From Chiloscyllium plagiosum (lineage: Eukaryota): DNA of 64,000 nucleotides. The DNA lies in contig NC_057729.1 in NCBI RefSeq assembly GCF_004010195.1, positions 13,482,777-13,546,776 of the forward strand. The letters are read 5' to 3'. Of this stretch, positions 2,713-57,795 are shown in pieces (the stretch's first letter is position 1; each line of letters starts with the position of its first letter). The notes below the pieces were generated by a model, which had not been told where the DNA came from, did no database searches, and saw nothing but the letters and a program-made list of their open reading frames with translations. Both the position numbers and the translations under genes were made by a program.

Positions 2713-3076
2713 GAATAAAAAAAAAGGAATCAATCAATTTCAATGCCTCCATGAAGGGAGAGAGCACACTTAGAAATGATATCTTGAATGCACGTCTGTT
2801 CTTCTTTGCATGAGTGAGGTTCAGCTCAGTCAGTAGTCCAAGGGAAAAAATTATGGAAAAGAATTAACTGCGGATGAAGTGGTCACAGAATTCTCTGGAG
2901 AGGGGCTAGTTGACATGGATTTGTGTTGGAGTAGATCTGAGATCATAAGAAAAATGACTTATCTTGCTCTTTGCATTTTTCCAAGTGCTTTCCACAATAT
3001 TGTCACTTCTGAAATGCAGTCAGTATTATGACAAAAAGCATAGACTCAGGTGGTTTTAAGAGTGGCGGAGTAGATG

Positions 3077-4220
3077 TCATAGAGTCAGAGAGATCTACAA
3101 CACAGAAACAGACCCTTCAGTCCAACTTGTCCATGCTGACCAGATATCCCAACCTAATCCAGTCCCATTTACCAGCAGTTGGCCCTTATCCCTCTAAACC
3201 TTTCCTATTCATGTACCTATCCAGATGTCTTTCAAATATTGTAATTGTACCAGGTTCCACCACTTCCTCTGGTAACTCATTCCATACACACACCACCCTT
3301 TGTGTGAAAAAGTTGTCCTTATGGTCCCTTTTAAATCTTTCCCCTCTCACCCTAAACTTATGCCCTGTAGTACTGGACTCTTCAACCCAGGGAAAAGACC
3401 TTGTCTATTTACCCATGCCATGCCACTCATGATTTTATAAATCTCTATAAGGTCACTGCTCAGCCTCTGACACTCCAGATAAAAAAATACCCAACCTATT
3501 CAACCTCTCCCTATAGCTCAAACCCTTCAACCCTGGCAATATCCTTGTAAGTGTTTTCTGAACTATTTCAAGTTTCACAACATCCCTCCTATAGGAGGGA
3601 GACCAAAATTGCACACAATATTCCAGAAGTGGTCTAATCAATATCCTGTACAGCTGCAACATGACCTCCCAACTCCTGTACTCAATGCTCTGATCAATAA
3701 AGGAAAGCATACTAAATGCCTTCTTCACTATCCTATCTACCTGAGACTCCACTTTCAAGGAACTATGAACCTGCACTCCAAGATCTCTTTGTTCAGCAAT
3801 ACTCCATAGGATCTTACCATTAAGTGTATAAGTCCTGCTCTGATTTGCTTTTCCAAAATGCAGCATGTCGCATTTATCTAAATTAAACTTTATCTGCCAC
3901 TCCTCGGCCCATTGGCCCATCTGATCAAGATCCTGTTGCACTCTTGAGGTAACCTTCTTTGCTGTCCGCTACACCTCCAATTTTGATGTCATCTGCAAAC
4001 TTACTAACTATACCTCCTATGTTCACATCCAAATCATTTACATAAATGATAAAAAGCAGTGGACCCAACACTGATCCTTGTAACACACCACTGACCACCG
4101 GCCTTCAGTCTGAAAAGCCCTCCACCACCACCCTCTGTCTTCTAGCTTTGAGCCAGTTCTGTGTCCAAATGACTAGTTCTCCCCATATTTCATGAGATCT
4201 AACCTTGCTAACTAATCTAC
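3077..4220 (-). mobile_element. 5'-truncated CR1/HER1-type LINE (RT C-terminal half and 3' UTR)
   Basis: ORF 3453-3941 contains QIKFNLDKC, RDLGVQVH and RPLLEYCVQFWSP; FADD codons lie near 3990; 3' end near 3077. Confidence 0.9.
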
Positions 4221-4354: not shown

Positions 4355-6725
4355 GCATAGTATCATAGTTTTGTGAGGCTTTTCGGTCCATAGTCTTAAG
4401 TGCTGGTCATTAAGCACTTATCCACTCTAATGCCTTTTCCAGCATCTGACTCATAGTCTTAAATACTATGGAATCTCAAGTGTGCATCTAAATAGTTTTT
4501 AAATGTCTTGAGTGTTCCTGCCTTGACCACCTAGTTTTTTAGACAATAAGTTCTAGATACCCACTGCACTCATTGTGGGGAAAAAAATCCTCCAATCCTC
4601 TCTAAACCTCCTGCTCCATACCTTAAACATATACCCTCTGAGGAGTTATGAGAGGTTGTTGGCGGATAGGATCAGGGTAAACCCTAAGGTTTCTATAGGT
4701 ATTTAAGGAATAAAAGAATGACGAGAGTAAGATTAGGGCCAATCAAGGATAGTAGTGGGAAGTTGTGTGTGGAGTCAGAGGAGATAGGGGAAGCACTAAA
4801 TGAATATTTTTCGACAGTATTCACTCTAGAAAATAACAATGTGGTCGAGGAGAATACTGAGATACAGGCTACTAGACTAGGTGGAGCTGAGGTTCACAAG
4901 GAAGAGGTATTAGAAATCCTACAGATTGTGAAAATAGGTAAGTCCCCTGGGCCGGATGGGATTTATCCTAGGATCCTCTGGGAAGCCAAGGAGGAGATTG
5001 CCGAGCCTTTGGCATTGATCTTTAAATCGTCATTGTCTACAGGAATAGTGCCAGAAGACTGGAGGATAGCAAATGTGGTTCCCCTGTTCAAGAAGGGGAG
5101 TAGAGACAACCCTGGTAATTATACACCAGTGAGCCTTACTTCAGTTGTTGGTAAAGTGTTAGAAAAGGTGATAAGAGATAGGATTTACAATCATCTAGAA
5201 AAGAATAATTTGATTAGGGATAGTCAGCACGGTTTTGTGAAGGGTAGGTCATGCCTCACAAACCTTATTGACTTCTTTGAGAAGGTGACAAAACAGGTAG
5301 ATGAGAGTAAACCGGTTGATGTGATGTATATGGATTTCAGCAAGGCGTTCGATAAGGTTCCCCACAGTAGGCTTTTGTACAAAATGCGGAGGAATGGGAT
5401 TGTGGGAGATATAGCAGTTTGGATCAGTAATTGGCTTTCTGAAAGAAGACAGAGGGTGGTGGTTGAGGGGAAATGTTCATCCTGGAGTCCAGTTACGAGT
5501 GGTGCACTGCAAGGGTTGGTGTTGGGTCCACTGCTGTTCATCATTTTTATAAACGACCTGGATGAGGGCGTAGAAGGGTGGGTTAGTAAATTTGCAGACG
5601 ACACCAAGGTCGGTGGAGTTGTGGATAGTGACGAAGGATGTTGTAGGTTACGGAGAGACATAGAAAAGCTCCAGAGCTGGACTGAGAGGAGGCAAATGGA
5701 GTTTAATGCGGACAAGTGTGAGGTGATTCACTTTGGTCGGAGTAACTGGAATGCAAAATACTGGCCAAATGGTAAGATTCTTGGTAACATAGATGAGCAG
5801 GGAGATGTCGGTGTCCATGTACACAGATCCTTGAAAGTTGTCACCCAGGTTGACAGGGTTGTTAAGAAGGCATACAGTGTTTTCACTTTTATTAATAGAG
5901 GGATCGAGTTCCGGAACCATGAGGTTATGCTGCGGCTGTACAAAACTCTGGTGTGGCCGCACTTGGAGTAATGTGTACAGTTCTGGTCACCACATTATAA
6001 GAAGGATGTGGAAGCTTTGGAAAGCGTGCAGAGGAGAGAAGGATGTGGAAGCTTTGGAAAGCGTGCAGAGGAGATTTGCTAGGATGTTGCCTGGTAGGGA
6101 GGGAAGGTCTTATGAGGAAAAGCTGAGGGACTTGACGCTGTTTTCGTTAGAGAGAAGGTTGAGAGATGACTTAATAGAGACATATAAGATAATCAGAGGG
6201 TTAGATAGGGTGGACAGGGAGAGCCTTTTTCCAAGAATGGTGATGGTGAGCATGAGGGGGTATAGCTTTAAATTGAGGGGTGATAGTTATAGGACAGATG
6301 TCAGAGGTAGTTTGTTTACTCAGAGAGTAGTAAGGGTATGGAATGCTTTGCCAGCATCGGTAGTAGATTCACCAACTTTAAGTACATTTAAGTCGTCATT
6401 GGACAAGCATTATGGACGTACATGGAATAGTGTAGGTTAGATGGGCTTCAGATTGGTATCACAGGTCGGTGTAACATCAAGGGCCGAAGGGCATGTACTG
6501 TGCTGTAATGTTCTATGTTCTATGTTCTATGTTATTGACCCTTTGCTAAGAAGAAAAGAAACTCCCTATCTATCCTGTCTTTGCCTCTCAGAACTTTGTG
6601 TATCTCAATCAAACAGCCCTCAGTCTTCTCCACTCTAAGGAAAACATCCCCAGATTATCAAGTCTCCCTTCATAACTGAATTGCTCAAGCCCAATCAACA
6701 TCCTGGTGAATTTCTTCTCGTGCAG
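4355..6725 (-). mobile_element. Old CR1 3'-end fragment split by the younger CR1 at 4641-6533 (host pieces ~4355-4640 and ~6534-6725)
   Basis: The degraded minus-strand CR1 3' sequence reads through across the insertion (...CCCTCTG | TTATTGACCC...). Confidence 0.55.
4641..6533 (+). mobile_element. 5'-truncated CR1 LINE with a nearly intact RT domain (417-aa ORF 4718-5971)
   Basis: Motifs KSPGPDGI, ANVVPLFKKG, QHGF, DFSKAFDKVPH and FADDTK; premature stop at 5969; 37-bp tandem duplication at 6001-6074; (TTCTATG)n tail at 6511-6533. Confidence 0.95.
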
Positions 6726-6914: not shown

Positions 6915-8189
6915 CAACAGTCAATCTTCCATAATTACACTGGCACCACTCCCCACCTCTTCCACCGCTACATTTTTGACTACATTGGAGCCACCTCGTG
7001 CTCCCGCAAGGAGGTTGAGCAATTCATCAACTTCACCAACACATTCCACCTTGACCTGAAATTTACCTGGACCATCTCTGACACCTCCCTCCCCTTCCTG
7101 GACCTCTCCATCTCCATTAATGACGACCGACTTGATACCGACATTTTTTACAAACCCACCGACTCTCACAGCTACCTGGATTACACCTCTTCCCACCCTA
7201 CCTCCTGCAAAAATGCCATCCTGTATTCCCAATTCCTCCACATTCGCCTTTTCTGCTCCCAGGAGGGCCAGTTCCACCACAGAACACACCAGATGGCCTC
7301 CTTCTTTAGAGATCGCAATTTCCCTTCCCACATGGTTAAAGGTGCCCTCCAACGCATCTCGTCCACATCCCGCACCTCTGCCCTCAGACCCCACCCCTCC
7401 AACTGTAACAAAGACAGAATGCCCCTGGTGCTCACCTTCCACCCTACCAACCTTCGCATAAACCAAATCATCTGCCGACATTTCCGCCACCTCCAAACAG
7501 ACAGTACCACCAGGGATATATTTCCCTCCCCACCCCTTTCCGCCTTCNNNNNNNNNNNNNNNNNNNNNNNNNNNNNNNNNNNNNNNNNNNNNNNNNNNNN
7601 NNNNNNNNNNNNNNNNNNNNNNNNNNNNNNNNNNNNNNNNNNNNNNNNNNNNNNNNNNNNNNNNNNNNNNNNNNNNNNNNNNNNNNNNNNNNNNNNNNNN
7701 NNNNNNNNNNNNNNNNNNNNNNNNNNNNNNNNNNNNNNNNNNNNNNNNNNNNNNNNNNNNNNNNNNNNNNNNNNNNNNNNNNNNNNNNNNNNNNNNNNNN
7801 NNNNNNNNNNNNNNNNNNNNNNNNNNNNNNNNNNNNNNNNNNNNNNNNNNNNNNNNNNNNNNNNNNNNNNNNNNNNNNNNNNNNNNNNNNNNNNNNNNNN
7901 NNNNNNNNNNNNNNNNNNNNNNNNNNNNNNNNNNNNNNNNNNNNNNNNNNNNNNNNNNNNNNNNNNNNNNNNNNNNNNNNNNNNNNNNNNNNNNNCCTAT
8001 CACCTTCATCCCCCCCCCCACTCACCTATTGTACTCTATGCTACTTTCTCCCCACCCTCACCCTCCTCTCACTTATCTCTCCACCCTTCAGGCTTTCTGC
8101 CTGTATTCCTGATGAAGGGCTTTTGCCCGAAACATCGATTTTACTGCTCCTCGGATGCTGCCTGAACTGCTGTGCTCTTCCAGCACCAC
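6915..8189 (+). mobile_element. 5'-truncated Penelope-like element (RT C-terminus to pLTR) spanning the assembly gap
   Basis: Degenerate RYIDD, LPFLDLSI and KPTDSHSYLDYTSSHP, then PLVLTFHP; hammerhead motif at 8109-8140; TSD CAATGGCAAT at 6905-6914 and 8190-8199. Confidence 0.85.
7548..7995. other. Assembly gap (448 N)
   Basis: Run of n. Confidence 1.
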
Positions 8190-12842: not shown

Positions 12843-15145
12843 GCAGGGAAATAGTAACTTCTGAGAAGCTATCAAGTCTAGTGCAGGTCAGAACACATTT
12901 TCTGATCAAAGTATTGAAACATTTCAGTATTTAATGACACTGAAATATTTGCTTTGGAATGGTTGGGAGAAGGAATTGTCAGAGTAGCTTTGAAACTGAT
13001 TCTCAAAACTAAGTGAACTGACCTTTGACAGACACTGGACATCTTGGTGAAACAAACCTCTTGGAAGATGGAAGTAAAAACTGCAATTCTGTAGAGAATG
13101 CATTGTATTGTATTGTATAAATGTGGGAGGTGAGTAGGGGGATTCTTGATTACGTTAGGTTGGGTGTGGAGATGATCAATTTCTACAGAAGAACTACACC
13201 AATATTTACTCAAGGTCAATTTTAAATTTTTCAATTGAGTCTTAACACATGAAATGTTGCCATGTAGTCCATCAAGTCTTTCACTGGGAATTAAGTATCT
13301 TTAAAATTGCTATCTGTCTCTCTACGGATCATAACAAAGTGTACCTTTTTTTTAAGCTAGTAACTTTGCAGGGTTAAATTAAAATTAAAATTGCTGAAGC
13401 TTTAAAATGTTGACATTTTGGACTGATCATGGACATTCTTTTTCCTCAGCCAATAAAATGCAGTGGATTTTGTGCCGGTAGTCAGGGACCTGTGTTGGGT
13501 GCAGTGTGTAAACAGGCCATGTGGAAATGGAACCAGGCCTAAATGGGAATAGTTGCTTTTTTAACCTGTCCTTTTTATTTACTGTCTGTTTGCAGCAAGT
13601 GAAATAAATTGAAAAAGACCTCTTACTTGTCCACCAGCCACACGTGTAAAGGATGACTATTTCTTTCAATCCAGATTACAATGAGGGAAACTGCAATCAC
13701 CATGATTTCAAATTATTCTATTTCTCTGTCAATGACTTCATACAAAGCTGTTGACTCATTTGTTAGGGTACTGGGGCAAGTCACCATCAAGTGTTTCATC
13801 TGAGAAACCATTGTTTGATATTGAGTCCATCAAACTCCTGAGCTATTACCTTTTGAGATGAGTCTCTGCTTGATGAAAAACAATCTGTGCACCTCCTGCT
13901 ATCCCACTCCCACCAATTCCAAGGGTTCTTTTACCAAGATTGTTTGGTATTTGTGGGTAAAAGGATGCTGCCACCAATCATCCTTGATTGACTGCATCTA
14001 AGGGTTTAATTGGGCTACAGTATTGGAGGATCAAACACTATTGACCCTTAGCAAAACATAATTTACTGAATGATGGTAATTAGGCACATGTTACTTTGGA
14101 AAGATAGACCTTGTAACAAAGACTGTGGAGTCCTAGGATTAGGTCTTCACTCCATGAGGTCTAGAATGATTTGCATAATCCTAACCAGAACATCATCACA
14201 TCGAGTGGAATTTAATGTAGTCCTCAACACTAACACTTTCAGAACCATTAGCTTATTCAACACATAACAGTTTTCCCTCTGTCCACTATTGCCTGCTTCA
14301 AACTTATCATTCACATATTACTGATCTCGCAATTTTGAGCTTTCATTTCACTCATACTCTTCCAATTAACCTCAACTTGTGTAAGTTACAAATCATTCAG
14401 ATTGCTGCAAATTATTCTTGCTTGGTCACCTCTGTCAATCTTGATTCTCCTACACTATGCTACATCCACTTCCATTACCAAATTCATCTCCAGGTCCTAA
14501 ACTTAAATCTGCCTCCAAACCCTCATCAAACTCTATTTTACCAGACTCTCTTCCAGCTTCATATTCAGTCCACTTCTCAGTCACCAAAGTTACACCTTTT
14601 CTTCTCTGCTCCACCATTGAGGGGTGTTCTTTCAACTCTACACACTGAGATTTTTCTTCTTACTACCCTTCTCTCCAACTGAGCTTCTTTCACTCTAGTC
14701 CATATTTCACTCCTGTGTAGTGGTCATTGTTTTCCTTCTCTTGGAGATTCTTTCAAGCTGTCTTTCTGTTTTTATGGAGTGCTGAATATAACAGGTTAAT
14801 GAAGAGGGAAGCATATCCAAATTGAACCCAATACCAAATGCTCAGGACAGCAGATTTTCAGTAAACTTTATTAATTCTCATTAACTGCATGTAGTTCACT
14901 GCATCAATGCTGTCCTTCAAAATGGTTTTTAGATTTATTAAAATAATTGTTAACAGGGTTTTGGTGAACAATGGAGAAGAAATTCATTATTTTTGCAGGT
15001 ATTAAGGATATTATTGCATTTGAAAGCTATGTTGCATGACAGTGCACTATAATACTTTGCCACTGTTCAATTGGCTAAAATAAATAATTTCATAATCTGT
15101 CAGCATATTTAATAAGGTAAACATGGCAGTATTGAATCATTTATA

Positions 15146-15460
15146 TTAGATTAGATTACTTACAGTGTGGAAACAGGCCCTTCGGCCCAACAAGTCCACA
15201 CCGACCCGCCGAAGCGCAACCCACCCATACCCCTACATCTACCCCTTTAACCTAACACTACGGGCAATTTAGCATGGCCAATTCACCTGACCCGCACATC
15301 TTTGGACTGTGGGAGGAAACCGGAGCACCCGGAGGAAACCCACGCAGACACGGGGAGAATGTGCAAACTCCACACAGTCAGTCGCCTGAGTCGGGAATTG
15401 AACCCGGGTCTACAGGCGCTGTGAGGCAGCAGTGCTAACCACTGGGCCACCGTGCCGCCC
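15146..15460 (-). mobile_element. Full-length, well-preserved HE1-type SINE
   Basis: (GATTA)n tail, retained CpGs, ends ...CCACCGTGCCGCCC. Confidence 0.95.
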
Positions 15461-18612: not shown

Positions 18613-19575
18613 TTACCACTTACAACGTAAGTTGAGATTTCCACAGTAGCAGATCTCTTTGAAAGTCTTGCGCATCTCTTGACTCCGAAAGGCATAAATC
18701 ACGGGATCAATGACCGAATTACACATAATGAGGATCAGGTACATGTTAAAATGTGATGTGTAACAGATGCAGTATGGATTTGTAGGGCATGATATGATGA
18801 GGATAAGGTGAAGGAAAAAGGGAGCCCAACAGATAATGAAAATCCCAAGCAGGATGGTGATGGTAATGGCCCCTTTCATGCAAGTCCTCTGTTGGACAAT
18901 ACCATTGACTGGGAATGTGGCAATTCTTTTAATATGTAGACGAGCGAGCATAAACATATGGACATAAAGGGTAGTCATAAGGAAAAGCATGGTGAAGAAC
19001 ATGGCAATAAGACAAATGATGACTGTTTCGCTATCTGAATAAATTATGAAGGTAATACCACAGCAGATACAAGCAATCCAGATAAATATCATAAGAATTA
19101 AAGCCCGTTTTACTGTCATAATACTGTGGTAGCGCAAAGCATAGAAGATAGTGATGTACCTGTCAATGGCAATAATCAGTAGATTACATATTGATGCCAC
19201 TAGGGAAATACAGATCATTGAATCAAAAACATTGTCCATTTGCTGAATAAAGTGGTCAGTAGCCACCAAGAAGCCACTGTTTAAAAATGCCATTACAATT
19301 GTCTCCAAGGCATTAGATACACTTACCAGCATGTCTGCCACTGCTAAACTACAGATGAAAAAATACATTGGAGAATGGAGGTTTTTGTTTTTAAGAATAG
19401 CAAGGATAACCAGGATGTTTTCCAAAAGGCTGATGATTCCTAGAGTCAGAAACACTTCAGATTTAATTGGGACCTGTTCACAGAAGGCTGCACTGTTGTT
19501 CAGGATGATACTTTCATTCAGATCTTCTGTGCTGTTCATTGTCGGCAAATAGAATATAGAATGGGTGGAATTCAT
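18613..19575 (-). CDS. mc3r: Melanocortin receptor 3 (intronless class A GPCR, 320 aa from the first ATG)
   Basis: Seven hydrophobic segments; [25 protein letters not shown] and DPVIY motifs. MC3R-type segments FCEQVxIKxEVFL, [35 protein letters not shown] and [15 protein letters not shown]. The ORF-track start at 19608 is TTG; the first ATG is at 19575. N-terminal NxS/T glycosylation sites. Confidence 0.95.
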
Positions 19576-26330: not shown

Positions 26331-27032
26331 AAAAGTGATAGAGCTCCAACATTTATTTCATCATGTGTTTCATAAAATTTGTCTAACTGTCTGCCATTGA
26401 CATGAGTAGGGCAGATTTACTCAACATGTCTAGCACATTATAAACACATATTCCCTGACCTTCAAATCCTGGGGTGATACCTGAGCTTAGAGCTTCTTAA
26501 CCAATGGCAGGGATGCTGCCTATTACATCACAAGACTTCTAATGATTTCTTTTAACACCGAAAAATATAATTTTATAATTTTGCAGAAAGAAAAAACTGT
26601 ACCCTTCATTCACTCATAATAGAATCCTTCCCCCCCATGTTCTGAACAATGAACTGCGATGTTTAGTGAAAGTTCAATATTGCATGTGACAACATCTCCC
26701 TCATGAAGTCTGAAAGGCATTTCCAAAAGTTGTAATACTTTCAAGTTCACACACTAAATCTAGATACAAGCGATTTAACTTTTGACCAGAAACTGAACTG
26801 TACCAGCCACTGCATACTTAATGGGGACTCTCTGGTGTGTAACTCTCCTCTGGATTCACCAAAGCCTCTCCACAACCTACAAGGGACAAATGTTTTGGAA
26901 TACTCTTGATGTGCCTGAATGAGGGCAGCTCCAACAACACAAGCGCTCTGATTTGATCCAGGAGAAACCAGCCTGTTGATTTGACCCATCTTCCATCTCA
27001 AACATTCACTCTGTCCACCAATAATCCATGGT

Positions 27033-27610
27033 TGTAAGGAAAAGAATTGTACACATTGTTCTTTCTGTAAAAATCAAAAGGCTCAGTGTGGGCTATTGGG
27101 GGAGGTGGGTGTCGGTTGAGTAAGATATGTCTGTACAAACAGTTACAAGCATCTGTTTCCCGGTTCTGCAAAAACAAACAAAAAGGACTACCATTAAGAG
27201 GTCATAAAGCTCAGTGTGAATAAAGGATAGAAAGAAAGATTGTTTTGGTAAGCATGGAAACAGATTGCAGTGAAGAAGGATAAATAACAATAAGACCACA
27301 GAGGGAAGTGTCAAACGGCCTTGTGAGGCCAGAGATAAACATTTTGTCACGGACAAGGCCGGATGAGTTCAGAGACAAACAGCTGGGTTTCGATTAGAAA
27401 CAGATGTAAACGGGGAGGAGCAATGGGAGGAGGGAAGAGAAACGAAATACATAAATATTGTGTACTTGTTAAATTCAGTGTGTGTGTGCCTGCCTGCCTA
27501 GTGGACAGTGGACACAAAACCCCTCTTGCAAGAGCGTAATAAAAGATACTACTGATTCAGATCTTGTCTCGGACTGAAATTATTGAAGTGAGTGAGCTTC
27601 ATTTCTCACA
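27033..27610 (+). repeat. ERV 5' LTR (578 bp)
   Basis: TG...CA ends; direct repeat of 35126-35738; AATAAA at 27538-27543. Confidence 0.97.
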
Positions 27611-27612
27611 AC

Positions 27613-27631
27613 TGGGGGCTTCGTCCGGGAT
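27613..27631 (+). promoter_or_regulatory. Primer binding site, tRNA-Pro
   Basis: TGGGGGCTTCGTCCGGGAT equals the canonical Pro PBS TGGGGGCTCGTCCGGGAT plus one extra T, 2 nt after the LTR. Confidence 0.9.
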
Positions 27632-27855
27632 ATTCTTCCATCACCGGTGGGAATGGTTGGCCCTGGACACTGGGAAAACGTGTCCCTTGGGCGACTGGTA
27701 CGAATCCCACAAGAGAGACATCTGAATCAGACAGTTAAAGGTAGTCGGTAGAAAATATGGAAAAAGCGGCCAGGCAACTCTGCACAGACCAAGGTAAGAA
27801 CGTTGACTTTTAAGTACAACCTTGGTGGCCAGGATTGGTGTGTAGGAAGCTCACC

Positions 27856-29471
27856 ATGGGAGGCTCAAACAGTAAAGGTGGATGTAATGTGGATAAGGGG
27901 AAAATTGAGGAATCCCCTGGGGACATCCCCCCAGAAAGTCCGTTGGGAAGGATGTTGATAATCCATGTATTAAGGGAAAGAATAAAAAGAAAATGATCAA
28001 GTATTGCTGTTTTGTATGGACTAAGGAGACAATCCTGCGTCCCTCCATCTTCTGGCCAAAGTACGGATCGGACGAGGATTGGATCTGTCAGTATTTAAAT
28101 TTATATGTGAACAGAAAACAGCCTTATAATCAGGAGAAGTCTAATTATGCATCATGTTGGGGGGGTAGTTCCGCAATGATGGCAGTGAAAACACCAGTAC
28201 CGGAGACTCCTTCGGCCTCACCTCAGCCTTGGGATCCTCCCCAGAACCTCCCTCCCCCTTACCAACAAATATAGGGAAATTAGGAAGGGGATCAACCTTC
28301 CCGGCAGACCAGGCTCAACTAGAAGGAATAGTTGAAGATGCGGGAGAAAGCAGGGGAGCAGTGGGGGGGAGTGGTGGCGGTACCCGAACAACGGGAGTCC
28401 GCTGATAAACGAACAAAAAAGGAACCCATGGGAACACAAAGGGGGTCAAAGGTTATGACAAGGGAGGATAAAAAGAAACAGAAAGAAGTTAAACAATACC
28501 CATTAAGAAAGGTTCCAATAGGAGACAAAGAAATCGGGTTTGTTAGCACTCCCTTAACCTCGGGGGAGGTCACTCGTTCAAAAAAGAAATGAAAGTTTTG
28601 ATTGAGGACCCGTGGGACTCCCTGAACAGGTAGACCAGCTTTTAGGGCCAAGCCTGTACATGTGGATGGAGTTGATGTCCATCCATAATATCCTATTCAC
28701 GGGGGAAGAAAGAGGACTCATATGGGGTGCCGCAATAAAAATTTGGGACAGGGAGCATTCGGTTGGACATCCAGGAGCAGGTAGAGGGAAGGCGAAGTTT
28801 CCTTTGAGGGACCCTCGCTGGGCTAATCAGAATGCAGATCATAGGGAGGAGATAAAAGACTTCAAGGATATGATTATGAATGGTATTCGAGAAGTGGCCC
28901 CCAAATCATAGAATTTGATGAAAGCGTTTGAAATAAGACAGGAGACAGATGAGACGCCCTCGGCTTTTTTGCAAAGGTTAAGGGACTCCATGTGTAAATA
29001 TTTGGGTATGAATCCTGAGGACCCTGTAGCACAGGAGCTCTTGAAAGTACATTTTGTAACGAAAGCTTGGCCAGACATACAGAAAAAGATACAAAAGATC
29101 GAAGGGTGGAGTGAAAAACCATCAGATGAATTATTGAGGGAAGCCCAGAAAGTATTTGTGGAAAGAGAAGACGAGAGACAGAAGCAGAAGGCAAAAATGA
29201 TGGTAGTCAGGTTGATGAGGTCATGAAGAAAAGGGTAGAACCCATAGGAAACAACTGGAAGGGGGGATGGCAGCATGTAGGGCAGAGTGGTAGAGGAAGA
29301 GGGCAAAGTGGGATGTGCTTAAGAGGTCAAGGAAGACAAGAAACACAAAAATGGAGGACTCCCCAGGTAGGATGTTATTATTGTGGAAAAACGGGGCATT
29401 TTAAGAGGGATTGCCTAGATCTAAAAAGGGAAGAGCAGGCAATTCCACTCATGAATTTTGACAAAGAATAG
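27856..29471 (+). pseudogene. gag: ERV gag (stops and frameshifts)
   Basis: Kozak ATG with myristoylation-type MGGSNS; MIKYCCFVWT...WPKYGS; PPPY late domain; MHR-like QETDETPSAFLQRL; one zinc knuckle CYYCGKTGHFKRDC; ends in TAG. Confidence 0.92.
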
Positions 29472-29533
29472 GGGTGTCAGCGGTTCCTGCCCCTGGGGAC
29501 CCACCAGGAACCCTTGATAAATTTAAAGGTGGG
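29469..29533 (+). promoter_or_regulatory. gag amber-readthrough signal with H-type pseudoknot
   Basis: TAG, then spacer GGGTGTCA; stem 1 GGTTCCTG (29482-29489) pairs with CAGGAACC (29505-29512); stem 2 CCCAC (29500-29504) pairs with GTGGG (29529-29533). Confidence 0.75.
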
Positions 29534-32500
29534 ACCCTGTAGAGAAGAGGTAGTCTTTTTGGTAGATATGGGGGCATCAAGGTCATCGCTAAATTTTAAA
29601 CCCAAGAAGGTGACTACATCAGGAAAGGCCGTTATGGTTTCTGGAGTAAAAGGGGAAGGATTTACAGTTCTAGTATTTGAGCCATGATGATAGACGGACC
29701 AAAGGATATGGTTACTGGGGAGCTGCTATATATTCCGGATATAGTGAGCAATTTATTAGGAAGGGATCTGATTATTCTGCTCGAATTGGAGATAGGAGTG
29801 TAGGAAGAAGAGATAAGGGTACAGATGGCCCTTTTGACGGAAGAGGCAGGAAAAGAAATAAACCCAATGGTATGGGCCAGGGAGGGGAATCGAGGAGGAC
29901 TACAGATTCCTCCCCTTGAAATAAGCTTGAAAAAGAAAGGAGAGATGGTACGTGAGCGACAGTACCTCATATCTGTAGAAGGGAAGCGGGGACTACAACC
30001 GGTAATTAAGGGATTGATCAGGGATGGGCTGTTGGAACCCTGCATGTCCCCGTACAACACTCCGATCCTGCCAGTAAGAAAATCAGATGGAACGTAAAGG
30101 GTGGTACAGGACTTACGGACGTTGAACAGGATAGTACAAATTAGACATCCAGTGGTCCCCAATCCCTATACGTTGTTAAGTAAAATCCCACACGATCATA
30201 AATGGTTGAGTGTAATTGATTTAAAGGATGCTTTTTGGGCTTGCCCCCTGGTGGAAGAGAGTAGGAATTTATTTGTCTTTGAATGGGAAAATCCCAGGAC
30301 GGGGCGGAAGCAGCAATACCGCTGGACAGTACTACCTCAGGGATTCACGGAATCCCCCAATCTGTTTGGATAGACGTTGGAAAGAATATTAGAAGACTTT
30401 AATAGCCTCAAGGGGACCAGCCTCTTACAGTATGTAGATGATTTACTAGTAACGGGGAAAAAGAAAGAAAAGACTACCGAAGCGACGAATAAATTGTTCA
30501 ACTTACTGGGGAGGCAGGGACTAAGGGTATCCAGTACGTAGAGAGGAAAGTAAAATATTTGGGGCACCTAGTCAGTGAAGGAAAAAGAAAAATAAGTCCG
30601 GAAAGGATCGAAGGGATAGTAGACATGCCCCTGCCCGGTACCAAGAGGGAGTTGAGGAAGTTCCTGGGCCTAACAGGATACTGCAGGTTGTGGATAGATT
30701 CTTATGCCCAGAAGACAAAAAAAAATTGTATCTTAAGTTAGTAGAGGGGGAACCAAAGAACTTAGTATGGGATGCTGAGGAAAAGAAATTAATAAAGTAA
30801 CTTAAGAAAAACTTAATACATGCTCCTGTCCTGGCTCTCCCATCCTTAGACAAGCCCTTCCACTTGTTTGTCACAGTAGATAAGGGTGCGGCTTTGGGAG
30901 TACTGACCCAGAAGTGGGGAGGAATGAAACAACCTGTGGCATATCTTTCCAAACTATTGGACCCTGTGTTGAGAGGATGGCCGGAATGTGTGCAGGCAGT
31001 AGCAGCTACGGCAATACTGGTAGAAGAAAGTAGGAAACTCACATTCGGGGGAGCCCTGATAGTGAGTACCCCACATCAGGTCAGGACGATACTCAATCAG
31101 AAAGCGGGGAGATGGTTAACTGACTCCAGGATATTGAAGTACGAGGCCATATTGGTAGAGAAAGATGATTTAGTCTTGGTCACTGACAGTTGCCTGAACC
31201 CTGCCACCTTTTTGTGGAAGGCAGAAGGAGAACCACCCCAAAATCCAGAACACGACTGTTTAGATATTATAGAATACCAGACCAAAGTCTGGATGGACTT
31301 GAGAGATATCCCTCTTCATGAAGGAGCCCGACTTTTTATTGATGGATCATCCCGAGTGATTGAGGGCAGGAGGCATAATGGATATGCGGTAATTGAAGGG
31401 ACGGAAAGAAGCACACTAGAAGCCGGGAGGCTACCTAATGGATGGTCAGCGCAGACGTGTGAGCTATATGCACTAGAAAGGGCTTTAAGAGTATTAGACG
31501 ATAAAGAAGGGACAGTATATACGGATTCAAAGTACGCATTTGGAAAGATATGGCAAGAGAGAGGGCTGATAAGGAGTTAGCCCATGAGGAATTGATAAAG
31601 CGAGGTTTGGATTCTTTGTTATTACCTCGGGAGATAGCGGTTGTCCATGTGAATGGGCATCAGAAGGGGAATGGGCCAGAAGAAAAAGGAAATAGATTGG
31701 CTGATGAAGTGACTAAGGAAGCAGCTTTGGGGCCTGAAGAGGCTGAGATATTTTCATTAATTCCTGTAATGTCAAAATCCCGAGAAATCCCAATATTTAC
31801 TGAGAAGGAAAAAAGAGAGCTGAAGGAGTTAGGGACTACGGAAACAGCGGAGGGACATTGGATGTTGCCGGATGGTAGAGAAATGTCAAACAAAATGGTG
31901 ATGTGAGAAATTATGGCAGTATTACACCAGAGTAGCCATTGGGGTGTACAAGCGATGTGTGATCTGGTCTTAAGGAAATACGGATGTAAGGGGATTTATA
32001 TGGTGGCCAAACAGATTTGTGAGAAGTAAAATCTGCAGGAAAGTGAACAAGAAGGTGACTAGGAAACAGACTCCAGGAGGAAGGGAGCCAGGGTTAAGAC
32101 CTTTCCAAAGCATGCAGGTGGATTATTCTGAACTACCCCGGGTGGGAAGATTGAAGTATATGCTAGTGATAGTGGACCATCTCTCGGGATGGTTCGAGGC
32201 ATATCCTTTAGCTACGGCCACTGCAGGTGGTTTATCTAAGATGATATTGGAACATATCATTCCCCGGTATGGATTGGTGGACTGTATTGATTCGGATCAG
32301 GGAATCCATTTTACTTCCAAGGTCCTACAGGGAATAATGAAGGGATTAGGGATATCTTGGGAGTTTCATACCCCATGACACCCTCCACCATCGGGAAGGG
32401 TGGAAAGGATGAATCAGACACTGAAGAAACAATTATCTAAGTTAATTGTTGAAACCAGGCTTCCTTGGACCAAATACTTGCCAATCGCCCTTCTACGAAT

Positions 32501-32941
32501 ATGAACAGCTCCCCGCAAAGATTTGGGACTGTCCCCTTATGAGATATTCGGACTACCCTAGTTGGGGATGAAAAGAGAGTTACCGGTACCAGAAACTAAA
32601 GATTTGTTCTTAAAGAAGTATATACTGGGCTTGTCCTCCTCTTTGTCTTTCCTCAGGAAACAGGGTTTATTGGCACAGACTCCGCCCCTTGAATTCACTT
32701 TTCATCCGATTCGACTGGGAGATTGGGTCTTAGTAAAATCATGGACAGAGACTAAATTGCAACCGAGTGGGAAGGGCCGTACCAGGCTCTCTTGACCACT
32801 GAAACAGCGATAAGGACGGCAGAGAAAGGTTGGACTCACTACACCAGGATCAAGGGACCGGTGGAATCCCCGGTTGAAAAAGTAGTCTGGACAGCCAAAT
32901 CAACAGAAGAACCACTGAAACTGAGACTCAAAAGACTTTAA
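29472..32941 (+). pseudogene. pol: ERV pro-pol (protease, RT, RNase H, integrase), disrupted
   Basis: Protease FLVDMGA; RT SPYNTPILPV, QDLR, DLKDAF, LPQGF and QYVDD; RNase H FIDGSS and YTDSKYAF; integrase HHCC, QVDY, DSDQG and GRVERMN; WEGPY. Confidence 0.95.
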
Positions 32942-33035
32942 GTAACTGATTTTTATGCAGACGCGGGATGGATCTTTTTTTTGATATATATTGTATTGCA
33001 AGTTAAATCTCTCGGTCTTTCAATGTTATTGTAGA

Positions 33036-35075
33036 ATGTTGGGGATGCTTAGGGTTATGATACCAGCTCCCTTAATATTGGGGTTTTGTCAAATATCGTC
33101 TTCATATGTGTTATTAACGGTTCCTGAGTCTGATAATCCACAGGTAATAGATGTTGATGCATGCAGCTTAGTAAATTGTGGGGATGTAGATAATCAGAGA
33201 CAGTACAGCAGCTCTGAGATACATCTTCAGTCCTTTGGGAATGGTACTTGGTATAATGGTCTTGTCACAGTACACCGGGCCACCTTCCGATCAGCTCTCG
33301 ATTGACCCGATAAAAAGTGCAACCCAATATACCTAACGATAAAGAAAACCACATGGCACGAAGCATCTCGGGGGTGGGGGGGCACCTATGAGATACAATT
33401 AAATGAAACATTTGGGATAGAAATGAAAGCAAACGGGAAGGATTTCTTAGGCAGTTGTTTTCAAATTAGCGTAGGAAAGGGAAGACAGACAGAACTACTG
33501 GATAATAAGATTCAACCTTTCACCCCTCCCGATGATCCTAAAGTTGTAAAAATTATAGAGGTAAAGGACTAGAAACAGACCATCGAAATAGAAACTGGGT
33601 ACGGGGATGCAATTGCCTGGGTTGAATGGGTCAAGTATACTGTAAAAAGTCTGAACAAGATCAATTACTATGCAAGTGCCTCCGGTAGACCAGTGGCCCA
33701 GGTGGTCCCCTTTCTGCTTGGGTGGAAGCGAGACAGGAAGGGCATGAAATGTATGATAGTCCTGTACCAGGATGAGACTGCATGGAATGATAGGAACTGT
33801 ACCTCCCTAGCTCTGATGTTCCCTCCCTTGGAGAAGAAAGATTCAAAAGCACCTCCCCACTACGTTTTCAGCCGCAGTTGGAAATCACATGTCGTGTGCG
33901 CGTAGACGAGGTACAAATCGGTCTAGAGATTTGGGGGAGCTGAAATTACGTACAGAGGTTAAGAATGTCACCAAAGCGGACAAGGGAGGGAACTACTCAG
34001 CATTAAAGATTCCCCGAGCAGATCTATGGTGGTACTGTGGGGCAAAATATTGAGACCCATCCACCCTCCCTCTGGATTGGAGAGGGATATGTGCAATTGT
34101 ACAACTGGCAATTCCATTTACCCTGGCATTTAAGAAGGAAAAGATAGTAGGGAAAAAGGGAAGGAGTAAAAGATCATTATTAGACACCTCTTTTGATGAC
34201 AGGATTTATCTAGACTCTATAGGAGTTCTAAGAGAGGTACCGGATGAGTTCAAGGCTCGCAACCAGATTGCAGCAAGCTTTGAGTCAGCTCTCTTCTGGT
34301 GTGTAACGATTAATAAAAATGTAGATTGAATAAATTACATTTTCTATAATCAACAGCGATTTATGAATTATACAAAAGATGCGGTTAAAGGAATAGCAGA
34401 ACAGCTTGATGCAACAAGTAGGATGCACGGGAAAACAGAATGGCCCTCGATATGATTTTAGCAGAAAAAGGGTGTGTGTGTGTGTGTGTGTTGTTAGGAG
34501 GAAGCTGTTGTACCTTTATTCCTAATAACACTGCGCCTGATGGTTCAATAACTCAGGCCTTAAGGGGATTGACTACCCTCCCACAATCCAAAAAGGTGCA
34601 GGTTAGGTGAATTGGCCATGCTAAATTGCCCGTAGTGTTAGCTGAAAGGGTAAATGTAGGGGAATGGGTCTGGGTGGGTTGTGCTTCGGCAGGTCAGTTT
34701 GGACTTGTTGGGCTGAAGGGCCTGTTTCCACACTGTAAGTAATCTAATCTAATCTTAGCAGAGGAACTGGCTGAAAATTCAGGAGTAGACACATCTCTCA
34801 CGGGATGGCTTAAATCATGGTTTGGAAAATGGAAGGGGGTGGTGGTTTTCATCCTTACTTCCCTGATAGTAGTAGCCGGAGTATTGGTAGCCATTGGCTG
34901 TTGCATCATACCCTGTATACGAGGGCTCACCCAGAGACTGATTGAGACAGCCTTAATGAAAGAGATGCCCCTGAAAGGGAATCAGGCAGAGGAACTTTAT
35001 CTAGAAAGAATGAGTGAGACCAAGATGGATGAAGTCTCAGGAATGATGCTTGAGAAATTTGGGGACGATACTTAA
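33036..35075 (+). pseudogene. env: ERV env (SU/TM), disrupted by stops, frameshifts and a SINE
   Basis: Hydrophobic leader; furin site RSKR at 34162-34173; ISU-like ENRMALDMILAEKG; CX6CC; membrane anchor VVFILTSLIVVAGVLVAIGCCIIPC. The start position is approximate. Confidence 0.88.
34578..34754 (+). mobile_element. 5'-truncated HE1-type SINE inserted in env TM
   Basis: SINE 3' half with a (TAATC)n tail interrupts GLTT|LAEELAENSG. Confidence 0.9.
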
Positions 35076-35112
35076 AGGAAAAATTGTAGAAACAACAATA
35101 GAATGTAAAAGC

Positions 35113-35124
35113 AAAAAGGGGGAA
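35113..35124 (+). promoter_or_regulatory. Polypurine tract
   Basis: AAAAAGGGGGAA immediately before the 3' LTR. Confidence 0.9.
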
Positions 35125-35125
35125 T

Positions 35126-35738
35126 TGTAAGGAAAAGAATTGTATACATTGTTCTTTCTGCAAAAATCAAAAGGCTCAGTGTGGGCTATTAGGGGAGGTG
35201 GGTGTCGGTTGAGTAAGATATGTCTGTACAAACAGTTACAAGCATCTGTTTCCCGGTTATGCAAAAACAAACAAAAAGGACCACCATTAAGAGGTCATAA
35301 AGCTCAGTGTGAATAAAGGATAGAAGGAAAGATTGTTTTGGTAAGCATGGTGAATAAAGGATAGAAGGAAAGATTGTTTTGGTAAGCATGGATACAGATG
35401 GCAGTGAAGAAGGATAAATAACAATAAGACCACAGAGGGAGGTGGTCAAACGGCCTTTTGAGGCCAGAGATAAACATTTTGTCACGGACAAGGCCGGATG
35501 AGTTCAGAGATGAACAGTCGGATTTAGATTAGAAACAGATGTAAACGGGGAGGAGCAATGGGAGGAGGGAAGAGAAGCGAAATACATAAATATTGTGTAC
35601 TCGTTAAATTCAGTGTGTGTGTGCCTGCCTGCCTAGTGGACACAACACCCCTCTTGCAAGAGCGTAATAAAAGATACTATTGATTCAGATCTTGTTTCGG
35701 ACTGAAATTATTGAAGTGAGTGAGCTTCGTTTCTCACA
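35126..35738 (+). repeat. ERV 3' LTR (613 bp)
   Basis: Direct repeat of the 5' LTR with a 41-bp tandem duplication (35309-35390). Confidence 0.97.
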
Positions 35739-36393
35739 ATGGTGCACTGCAGCAACTCAGCAGGGGCTGCTTACACAGCACCTTCGAAATCTATGACCTC
35801 AACGACCTGGAAGTAAAAAATGAAGAGGCAGTGCTCCGAATTCAAATAAACATGTTGGACTATAACCTGGTGTCATGCAATTTTTAACTTAGAAGTAAAA
35901 AGGCAGCAGATGTTTGGGAACACCATCACCTGCAAATTCCCTTCAAAGTCACACACCATCCTCACTTGGAACTACATCATTGTTCCTTCACTGTCATGGA
36001 GATAAAATCCTGAAACATCTTTCCTAACAGCACTGTACACGTTCCTACACCAGATAAACTGCAAAGTGGCATAAGAAATGGCTCACCACAACTTCCCAAA
36101 GGCAGTTAAGAATAAGCAGCAAATGCAGATCTTGCTTGTGATGCCCACATTCTGTGACAGACTAAAATAAACACCTGACCGCCATCTTGATGGGTGATCC
36201 CGGTGCTTACCCAGAATGGAGTAGTAGGTAAATCTGCAATCCCATTGGTTCTAATTCTGTCTTATGAAAACAAGGATATTAGTGACTCACAGTTGTGCTG
36301 TAGGAAATGTCTGAAAATGTATGGAAGTTTGGCAGGAGCACTTTAAAAGTCTCAAACAATGCTTGTTGCCATGTGGTAAGTGACTTGAAATTA

Positions 36394-36612
36394 CAATTGG
36401 TTCTGCTATAACCCATGTTTCTTCAACATGAATTGGCTTTAACACCACTGAAGAATTTAGACTGTTATTTGTAGAATTTGAACTTTCCTTACCTGTATTG
36501 GCTATAACATGATTCTGGCCCCATTAGTTTAAACGGTGTGGCTATTGCACGATTTTCTTATAATGCAAGATCGCACTAGATCAGAACTATCGTGTTATTT
36601 CAGAACCAACTG
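36394..36612. mobile_element. Tigger/pogo-type MITE
   Basis: TA flanks; TIR CAATTGGTTCTGCTATAAC versus CAGTTGGTTCTGAAATAAC. Confidence 0.8.
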
Positions 36613-50338: not shown

Positions 50339-50549
50339 GCTGTACTTTGCTTTTATTCTACATGGTAGGATTGTTCATTAAACGTTTGAATATGTGGTTT
50401 AGCAATGTACTACTCCTTCATGCTGTGAGGCAGCAGTGCTAACCACTGTGCCACCGTGCCGCCCAAGCTGTACTTTGCTTTTATTCTACATGGTAGGATT
50501 GTTCATTAAACGTTTGAATATGTGGTTTAGCAATGTACTACTCCTTCAT
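50339..50549. repeat. Perfect 83-bp direct repeat (50339-50421 and 50467-50549) flanking a 43-bp SINE 5' end (minus strand)
   Basis: Direct base-by-base comparison. Confidence 0.95.
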
Positions 50550-57300: not shown

Positions 57301-57480
57301 GTGTGTATGTGGTTTAGTGGGTCTTTCCTTGGAAGAAGCAATGTGGGTCTTTCGTTGGCTTTTAAGTGGTTGATGAGACCCATGAAGGCTCAAGAAGTTT
57401 CCATCCTGGATTACAATGATGAGGCAAAGCTGGATCGTCAGATGAGCTGCTATACCAACTACTCATTTAGGTGTAAAATA

Positions 57481-57795
57481 AGATTAGATACCCTACAGTA
57501 TGGAAACAGGCCCTTCGGCCCAACAAGTCCACACCGACCCTCTGAAGAGTAACCCACCCAGACCTGACATTTATCCCTGACTAATGCACCTCACACTGTG
57601 GGCAATTTAGCACGACCAATTCACTTCCTGCACATCTTTGGATTGTGGGACGAAACCGGAGCACCTGAAGGAAACCCATGCAGACACAGGGACACAGTGC
57701 AAACTCCACACAGACAGTCACCAAAGGCCGGAATCAAACCCGGGTCCCTGGTGCTGCGAGGCAGCAGTGCTAACCACTGGGCCACCGTGCCGCCC
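57481..57795 (-). mobile_element. HE1-type SINE
   Basis: Tail, body and reverse A/B boxes. Confidence 0.9.

Follow-up and report, generated by a model that had tools for sequence, protein, structure and literature searches.

Contig NC_057729.1 of Chiloscyllium plagiosum carries a provirus of 8,706 bp (27033-35738; positions are those of the window, the whole 64,000-nucleotide stretch analysed), and we asked to which retroviral lineage it belongs and how that lineage came to be in a shark. With good confidence, we read it as a class I endogenous retrovirus (ERV) that is full-length but defective. Its env is a homologue of primate EnvP(b)1, and its reverse transcriptase (RT) clusters with elements from ray, snake, gecko and bird hosts; entry into the shark germ line likely dates back tens of millions of years, and the lineage behind it likely passed between elasmobranchs and land vertebrates.

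Structure, decay and age of the provirus

The features of the locus are as follows.

18613..19575, minus strand: mc3r open reading frame, 320 aa; neighbouring host gene, context only
27028..27032: left target-site duplication, 5 bp, ATGGT, identical to the 5-mer at 35739-35743
27033..27610, plus strand: 5' LTR, 578 bp, TG...CA, with TATA-like box at 27450 and poly(A) signal at 27538
27613..27631, plus strand: primer-binding site of tRNA-Pro type with one extra base, matching the tRNA-Pro 3' end
27791..27798, plus strand: putative splice-donor-like site 5' of gag (AGGTAAG at 27792)
27856..29471, plus strand: gag, broken; myristoylation-type start, PPPY late motif, p30 capsid, one CCHC zinc knuckle
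29472..32940, plus strand: pro-pol, broken; protease, RT (YVDD), RNase H, integrase with GPY/F tail
33036..35075, plus strand: env, broken; EnvP(b)1-type SU, furin site, immunosuppressive domain, CX6CC, membrane anchor
34577..34755, plus strand: host interspersed repeat within env TM, about 180 bp, SINE/LINE-tail-like, with a short TAATC-type tandem end
35108..35125, plus strand: polypurine tract, by sequence motif
35126..35738, plus strand: 3' LTR, 613 bp, TG...CA; compared with the 5' LTR, 41 bp are duplicated and 7 bp deleted
35739..35743: right target-site duplication, ATGGT, directly abutting the 3' LTR

A preliminary description of this DNA had named both LTRs, the 5-bp duplication, the Pro-type primer-binding site, the polypurine tract and gag, pro, pol and env; all were located again, with the domains in order, and its splice-donor-like site at 27791 corresponds to the AGGTAAG above. 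Pfam returned Gag_p30, zf-CCHC, RVT_1, RNase H and rve in that order and gave no match in any of the four env pieces; env was instead recognised through homology. The structure is that of a class I (gamma-like) ERV, with the order LTR-gag-pro-pol-env-LTR, TG...CA ends, target-site duplication, primer-binding site and polypurine tract, and it has the class I traits of a p30-type capsid, a single zinc knuckle, gag and pro in one frame split by a stop (gag terminates at a TAG) and a GPY/F tail. The genes, once described as all reconstructable, are indeed recognisable, but every one is broken: pro-pol has six frame changes relative to an uninterrupted relative and several stops, env has two frame changes, stops and one insertion, and the longest stop-free sense-strand piece in the provirus is 259 aa. 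An Rfam scan of 26500-36500 gave no matches, and neither a further LTR nor a further internal region was found elsewhere in the 64-kb window. Queried against sequencing runs, 26700-27900 was partly contained in 20 of 24 rows, at a share of no more than 0.52; three organism codes exceeded 0.2, and no RNA run containing it was among the runs listed.

The insertion in env is a host repeat, 77-88% identical to copies in the window at 2544-2716, 15145-15316 and 57474-57650. Intact env relatives have a gap where it sits, and the repeat entered the TM region after the provirus had integrated. It had gone unlisted in the preliminary description.

Alignment of the LTR pair gave 22 substitutions in 571 aligned sites (16 transitions and 6 transversions; K2P 0.040) and three indels of 41, 1 and 7 bp, exactly the 22 or so substitutions and three indels that had been counted by eye. 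Under an assumed substitution rate, the provirus is about 20-90 Myr old. We suggest an ordinary retroviral integration into the shark germ line, likely tens of millions of years ago. By analogy with gammaretrovirus biology, the virus would have used tRNA-Pro-primed reverse transcription, Gag-Pol synthesis through read-through of the in-frame TAG, env expression from a spliced RNA and cell entry by a gamma-type Env; the present copy is probably inert and decaying neutrally.

The provirus starts 7.46 kb upstream of mc3r (7.5 kb in the earlier estimate) in divergent orientation, pointing away from the gene, which shares 319 of 320 residues with its C. punctatum counterpart. This position, together with the TATA-like and poly(A) signals retained in both LTRs, could suggest that the locus was kept through a co-opted LTR or gene, for example as an mc3r regulatory element. 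We consider this very improbable: the LTR promoter is directed away from mc3r, the scattered LTR substitutions and indels are what neutral decay predicts, and all four genes are broken. Co-option of a gene was rejected on the last ground, and a role at mc3r because no evidence for one was found.

Relationships of RT and Env

Against solved structures, the RT matched MLV-type RT with E=3.6e-52, and the next group followed at 1e-23. The RT being nearest to gammaretroviral RT among solved structures, and the Env being gamma-type with an immunosuppressive domain and CX6CC, their sequences place the provirus in class I. The preliminary description had proposed an RT tree with HERV-I/IP, gamma- and epsilonretroviruses and fish ERVs; in the tree built here, whose references are MLV-like and epsilon-like, the shark RT stood apart from both. 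It grouped with ray, snake, gecko and bird ERVs, in an elasmobranch, squamate and bird clade (100/99) to which a gecko element was sister (99/94). Among the matches listed (best 120 of 551), the nearest named relatives were one rattlesnake (68% identity), rays (62-69%) and passerines, and no named primate or other mammalian Pol was present among these 120 or among the 20 representatives checked. Identity was 45-47% to 11 IMG/VR reference genomes, which we take to be MLV-like viruses, and 36% to L012 and L013, presumably epsilon-like, which formed long separate branches. Placement in the genus Gammaretrovirus (MLV-like) was rejected on the separate starred clade and the 45-47% identity; placement among epsilon-like fish ERVs was rejected since the RT does not group with epsilon-like references.

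The envelope gave a more specific link. In a search of the SU against the PDB, the EnvP(b)1 receptor-binding domain was the only match at E<=1 (E=3.5e-6), and a macaque Env from a cluster identified as EnvP(b)1 aligned with 289 SU residues at 33% identity (E=8e-47). These alignments show homology between the shark env and primate EnvP(b)1 in both subunits, SU with its receptor-binding region and TM. The 40 env matches comprised 12 named sharks from three orders, 9 birds, 3 primates, 1 marsupial, 2 amphibians, 7 teleosts and 6 unnamed entries. Relatives of the provirus are widespread in sharks, and some of those in C. punctatum carry long env reading frames. The nearest non-shark relatives among the 40 were galliform and anseriform birds, with galliform envs 63-67% identical over the SU-end/TM piece. 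In a 41-row env tree, the provirus lay inside a starred, mainly shark and bird clade (96/95) that was sister to EnvP(b)1 (96/81); a catshark 'syncytin-2-like' match (P0159) formed a long branch far from the shark clade. With P0159, unnamed and redundant rows left out, EnvP(b)1 was no longer a supported sister in a 22-row tree or in an SU tree with an unresolved backbone; the homology is unaffected.

HERV-IP uses a Pro-type primer-binding site, and HERV-I proper (HERVERI supergroup) has a tRNA-Ile primer site. The shark site is of Pro type with one extra base, as expected of HERVIPADP, and HERV-I proper was rejected on this trait, described as unstable in PMC4724089. The same source gives an A content above 31% for HERVIP/HERVADP, and the 7,515-bp internal region of the shark provirus has 31.8%, a weak marker. 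EnvP(b)1 is reported to derive from a HERVIP10B3-like virus (PMC8123466) and to cluster with HERVIP Env (PMC4724089), and is described as fusogenic and kept, with a receptor-binding domain that is itself an inferred one (PMC7683403). A HERV-IP-type affiliation is supported through env and may extend to Pol and Gag. The earlier label 'HERV-I/IP' stands in this sense, but not on the matrix (MA) text offered for it, which joins two reading frames: no candidate of 13 passed in the MA-region protein search, and a ray Gag aligns with the shark Gag at 35%. The label also merges groups that PMC4724089 places in different supergroups, which are defined by pol phylogeny (PMC9323773).

An EnvP(b)1/HERV-IP-type env might instead have been joined by recombination to a non-HERV-IP gag-pol from a separate reptile-bird-elasmobranch class I lineage. 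The different nearest relatives of RT (rattlesnake, rays, passerines) and of Env outside sharks (galliform/anseriform) would fit such a mosaic, as would four swallow Pol-Env gene models among the RT matches, whose env is only 22-30% identical to the shark env family; these models, however, may be fusions of different loci or reflect a swap in passerines only. Mosaics are reported as common in HERVIP (PMC4724089) and anamniote ERVs (bioRxiv 10.1101/2021.11.23.469661). The Pro-type site and A-rich composition nevertheless fit a HERV-IP-like backbone, as do the human-ERV-related lemon-shark sequence (cited in PMC4422223) and the link drawn between HERVIPADP Pol and avian ChiRV1 (PMC4724089), and we regard recombination as unlikely.

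Host crossing or co-divergence

If the lineage had been in jawed vertebrates since the shark/bony-vertebrate split, shark-bird closeness would reflect slow evolution and lineage loss. Env relatives in three shark orders, amphibians, teleosts, birds, marsupials and primates are compatible with such co-divergence, and the shark env rows form one clade (96/95) in the 22-row tree. Full-length C. punctatum Env, however, shares 61% identity with quail Env, 58% with catshark, 52% with EnvP(b)1 and 43-44% with teleosts, so that shark-quail identity exceeds both quail-primate (52%) and shark-teleost identity, and the rattlesnake RT is as close as the ray RTs among the matches listed. An RT tree holding the sauropsid rows together was rejected (AU p=0.0005); the corresponding env tests were weak, with p=0.049 for the SU-end/TM piece and p=0.163 for SU, which leaves amniote monophyly standing with an unresolved backbone. 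The groups in these AU tests were named after earlier trees were known, and the alignments are short (183-261 columns). Host switching is the rule for non-foamy lineages (PMC6001957). We judge ancient co-divergence quite improbable, and favor a likely crossing of the source lineage between elasmobranchs and land vertebrates, with no direction implied. Old parallel lineages combined with loss could mimic a host jump.

A narrower reading, which we hold tentatively and somewhat doubt, is that a HERV-IP/EnvP(b)1-type retrovirus jumped from reptiles or birds to the sea, radiated in carpet, ground and horn sharks and in rays, and was recently still multiplying in bamboo sharks. Were this land-to-sea reading true, human EnvP(b)1 would have its nearest non-amniote homologues in the shark envelopes, and an entry receptor conserved across jawed vertebrates would be implied. 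A jump would rank among the widest host crossings that retroviruses have made and would contradict the statement that the gamma-like clade infects amniotes only (PMC6001957). Taken alone, the locus is probably inert and has an ordinary build; its value lies in the family, which is shark-wide and tied to human EnvP(b)1, and what chiefly keeps it of interest is a likely host jump linking elasmobranchs and sauropsids.

Comparison with known elements

The lemon-shark sequence of Herniou et al. from 1998 is reportedly a pol fragment, and Martin et al. are said to have described HERV-I-related fragments in 1997. As cited in PMC4422223, the former (Herniou et al., 1998) is human-ERV-related: a shark ERV near a human class I family, interpreted as cross-class transmission. 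By this description it is a single sequence, in contrast to the whole provirus with LTRs, target-site duplication and env found here, which turns a long-known hint into a datable element. For Chiloscyllium itself, a catalogue of gamma-related ERVs exists that includes gamma-type Env proteins, full-length genomes and 46 orthologous groups (bioRxiv 10.1101/2021.11.23.469661); ERV-GA.a-Cpu and others share with our provirus the host genus, a gamma-related Pol, a gamma-type Env with immunosuppressive domain and CX6CC, and full-length LTR copies. The main text of that preprint does not use the word 'HERV' and draws no tie to HERV-IP/EnvP(b)1; in a literature search covering few subscription journals, no paper was found that connects shark ERVs with HERV-IP or EnvP(b)1. 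The novelty is modest because the lemon-shark sequence and the Chiloscyllium ERVs are already in print, and the earlier view that full shark proviruses are sparsely described was overstated, given these ERVs and the complete shark proviruses of PMC4422223.

Those elephant-shark CmiERVs are complete chondrichthyan proviruses like ours, with a similar LTR divergence (0.024-0.033); they group with snakehead retrovirus and epsilonretroviruses (PMC4422223), whereas the RT described here does not group with epsilon-like references. Chicken ChiRV1 and HERV-I-related avian ERVs are described as class I and close to HERVIPADP (PMC4133949, PMC4724089), and ChiRV1 may be linked to the galliform env matches, which include no ChiRV1-labelled sequence. 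Primate HERVIP/ERVPb1 has in common with the shark provirus an Env homologous across SU and TM, an A-rich interior and a Pro-type primer-binding site. Identity between the shark env and ERVPb1 is 33% in SU, rising to 55% near the SU/TM junction; the shark gene is broken, whereas ERVPb1 is a kept open reading frame.

Structure, decay and age of the provirus

The LTR pair and target duplication were found where the preliminary description had placed the provirus. The LTRs (27033-27610 and 35126-35738) start with TG, end with CA and are bordered by one and the same 5-base sequence; the 571 aligned sites hold 22 substitutions between them, and there are three indels, as had been counted by eye (K2P 0.040; raw fraction with a 95% interval of 2.4-5.8%). 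The 5' LTR is followed by a primer site of the Pro type that carries one extra base. The donor-like motif AGGTAAG is at 27792, and the 3' LTR is preceded by a polypurine tract. Pfam scanning of 17 pieces gave, in this order, the domains Gag_p30, zf-CCHC, RVT_1, RNase H and, last, rve. TAG closes gag in the same frame as the protease, an arrangement that matches the gammaretroviral read-through layout.

The provirus starts 7.46 kb upstream of mc3r and is directed away from it; no result here connects the two. The mc3r ORF (18613-19575, minus strand) encodes 320 aa, with 319/320 residues identical to Chiloscyllium punctatum and 300/320 to whale shark, so the host is probably a Chiloscyllium bamboo shark. 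The Carcharodon (white shark) isoforms P0165, P0168 and P0169 (database proteins) diverge at the C-terminus, suggesting that this usually single-exon gene may be 3' spliced in white shark. Other features of the window are as follows.

4718-6440 and 3028-3920, both strands: CR1/L2-like LINE reverse-transcriptase remnants, read in the ORF text
7548-7995: N gap of 448 bases within another retroelement-like remnant
50339-50549: an 83-bp sequence that occurs twice unchanged, 128 bp apart; it may have been duplicated in tandem recently or reflect an assembly artefact

Every gene of the provirus is broken. When pro-pol is aligned to a 1,163-aa relative without interruptions, six frame changes break it into seven segments; the aligned segments contain as many as nine stops, some perhaps counted twice where segments overlap. 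Two frame changes plus stops were found in env and at least two frame changes in gag; in the sense direction, no piece longer than 259 aa is free of stops. A host repeat of ∼180 bp at 34577-34755, with 77-88% identity to three full copies elsewhere within the window, splits the region of env encoding the TM subunit. Because all genes are broken and TM is interrupted, the copy is inert as a virus. A (GT)n run (34472-34491) beside the CX6CC motif in TM is possibly a microsatellite expansion after integration. Several interspersed repeats at other places in the window match the right flank (35739-36036), so the integration site lay within or next to host repeats.

The most likely origin is infection of a shark germ cell by an exogenous class I virus from the HERV-IP-related lineage; integration would have made the 5-bp duplication, and the copy would have decayed afterwards. 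Judging from gammaretrovirus biology and the motifs, such a virus would have used tRNA-Pro priming, Gag-Pol read-through and spliced RNA for env. The LTR dating suggested in the preliminary description (K2P/2r on the LTR pair) gave about 20-90 Myr depending on the rate: 7e-10 and 1e-9, both illustrative choices, give 28 and 20 Myr, and 2.2e-10, the rate applied in PMC4422223, gives 90 Myr. We concluded that the provirus is real, well preserved and dead, and a gamma-type retrovirus in its working.

Reverse transcriptase affinities

The RT search returned 551 matches. Among the 120 listed, the highest identities were to a Logan protein (75%), rays (62-69%) and tiger rattlesnake (68%), birds were numerous (52-62%), and there was no named mammal. 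A search across all representatives of clustered database proteins gave 135 further RT proteins, with no named mammal among the 20 looked up. The reference set comprised 14 viral contigs, whose genome lengths suggest that they are MLV-like and epsilon-like viruses. A quick 123-row tree held the provirus, 38 of the 120 listed matches, 71 of the 135 representatives (near-full RT cover) and 13 of the 14 contigs; a careful tree held 41 rows. In both, the provirus fell in a clade of elasmobranchs, snake and birds (100/99), to which a gecko element is sister (99/94). An RT phylogeny had also been proposed at the outset; both trees separate the clade from the MLV-like group.

In RT, the rows of sharks and rays have sauropsid rows branching outside them. 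In AU tests on a 20-row RT tree, with groups chosen only once the earlier trees were known, grouping the clade's 11 sauropsid rows together was rejected (p=0.0005) and monophyly of the elasmobranchs was not (p=0.17). In four swallow gene models for Pol-Env, taken from the RT matches, the env is a different one (22-30% identity), suggesting that env may have been exchanged within the lineage.

Envelope affinities and probable cross-class transfer

The SU subunit piece had one PDB match, the receptor-binding domain of human EnvP(b)1 (E=3.5e-6), the product of primate ERVPb1. The piece covering the SU end and TM had 40 protein matches: 12 from named sharks (Chiloscyllium, up to 83%, plus Mustelus, Heterodontus and Scyliorhinus), nine from birds (59-67%), three from primates, one from a marsupial, two from amphibians, seven from teleosts and six others. 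Against the PDB chain the macaque Env cluster scores E=1e-91, which identifies it as EnvP(b)1; its alignment to the provirus SU covers 289 residues. Two papers give ERVPb1 an origin from a HERVIP10B3-like virus (PMC8123466) and cluster it with HERVIP Env (PMC4724089). The HERV-IP side of the HERV-I/IP affiliation first proposed for gag-pol stands for env, which sequence comparison places in the HERV-IP/EnvP(b)1 lineage, with Pol as a candidate member.

With all 40 matches, the provirus fell in a starred, mainly shark and bird clade with EnvP(b)1 as sister. In a 22-row tree, eight shark rows formed one clade (96/95) adjoining birds (87/92), EnvP(b)1 was placed without support, and the AU test rejected amniote monophyly by a narrow margin (p=0.049). 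The base of the SU tree was unresolved (amniote monophyly, p=0.163). P0159, a divergent Scyliorhinus canicula Env of the same broad family, grouped with teleost and unnamed rows outside the main shark clade and is perhaps a second, older shark env lineage.

Old parallel lineages could be the source of the RT tree pattern. Among database proteins, whole C. punctatum Env is 61% identical to quail, 58% to catshark, 52% to EnvP(b)1 and 43-44% to teleosts, and quail is 52% identical to EnvP(b)1; these values favour a host jump. From the trees and identities together, we infer a probable cross-class transfer, which may have run either way.

The nearest env cluster comprises 12 proteins, every one from C. 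punctatum; four of them are 626 aa long, lie on three different contigs and are 94-99% mutually identical. Another 33 proteins make up a second Chiloscyllium cluster, so the family is multi-copy. We infer that it multiplied in this congener later than the age of the provirus copy.

Relation to described elements

ERVs with gamma-type Env have been reported from six cartilaginous fish, and that report, which includes ERV-GA.a-Cpu by name and gives 46 orthologous groups for Chiloscyllium, may already contain this family (bioRxiv 10.1101/2021.11.23.469661). No literature linking shark ERVs with HERV-IP or EnvP(b)1 was found, in a search with most subscription journals outside its scope; PMC7683403 makes no mention of bird, reptile or shark. 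PMC6001957 states that the gamma-like clade infects amniotes only, which would be contradicted if the family's RT falls in that clade, a position supported by the quick tree and left open by the careful one. Complete elephant-shark proviruses of other lineages have already been described (PMC4422223), and a lemon-shark ERV near a human ERV is cited as cross-transmission in the same paper. Beside these, the value of the present provirus lies in the env link between shark, bird and primate more than in the locus itself.
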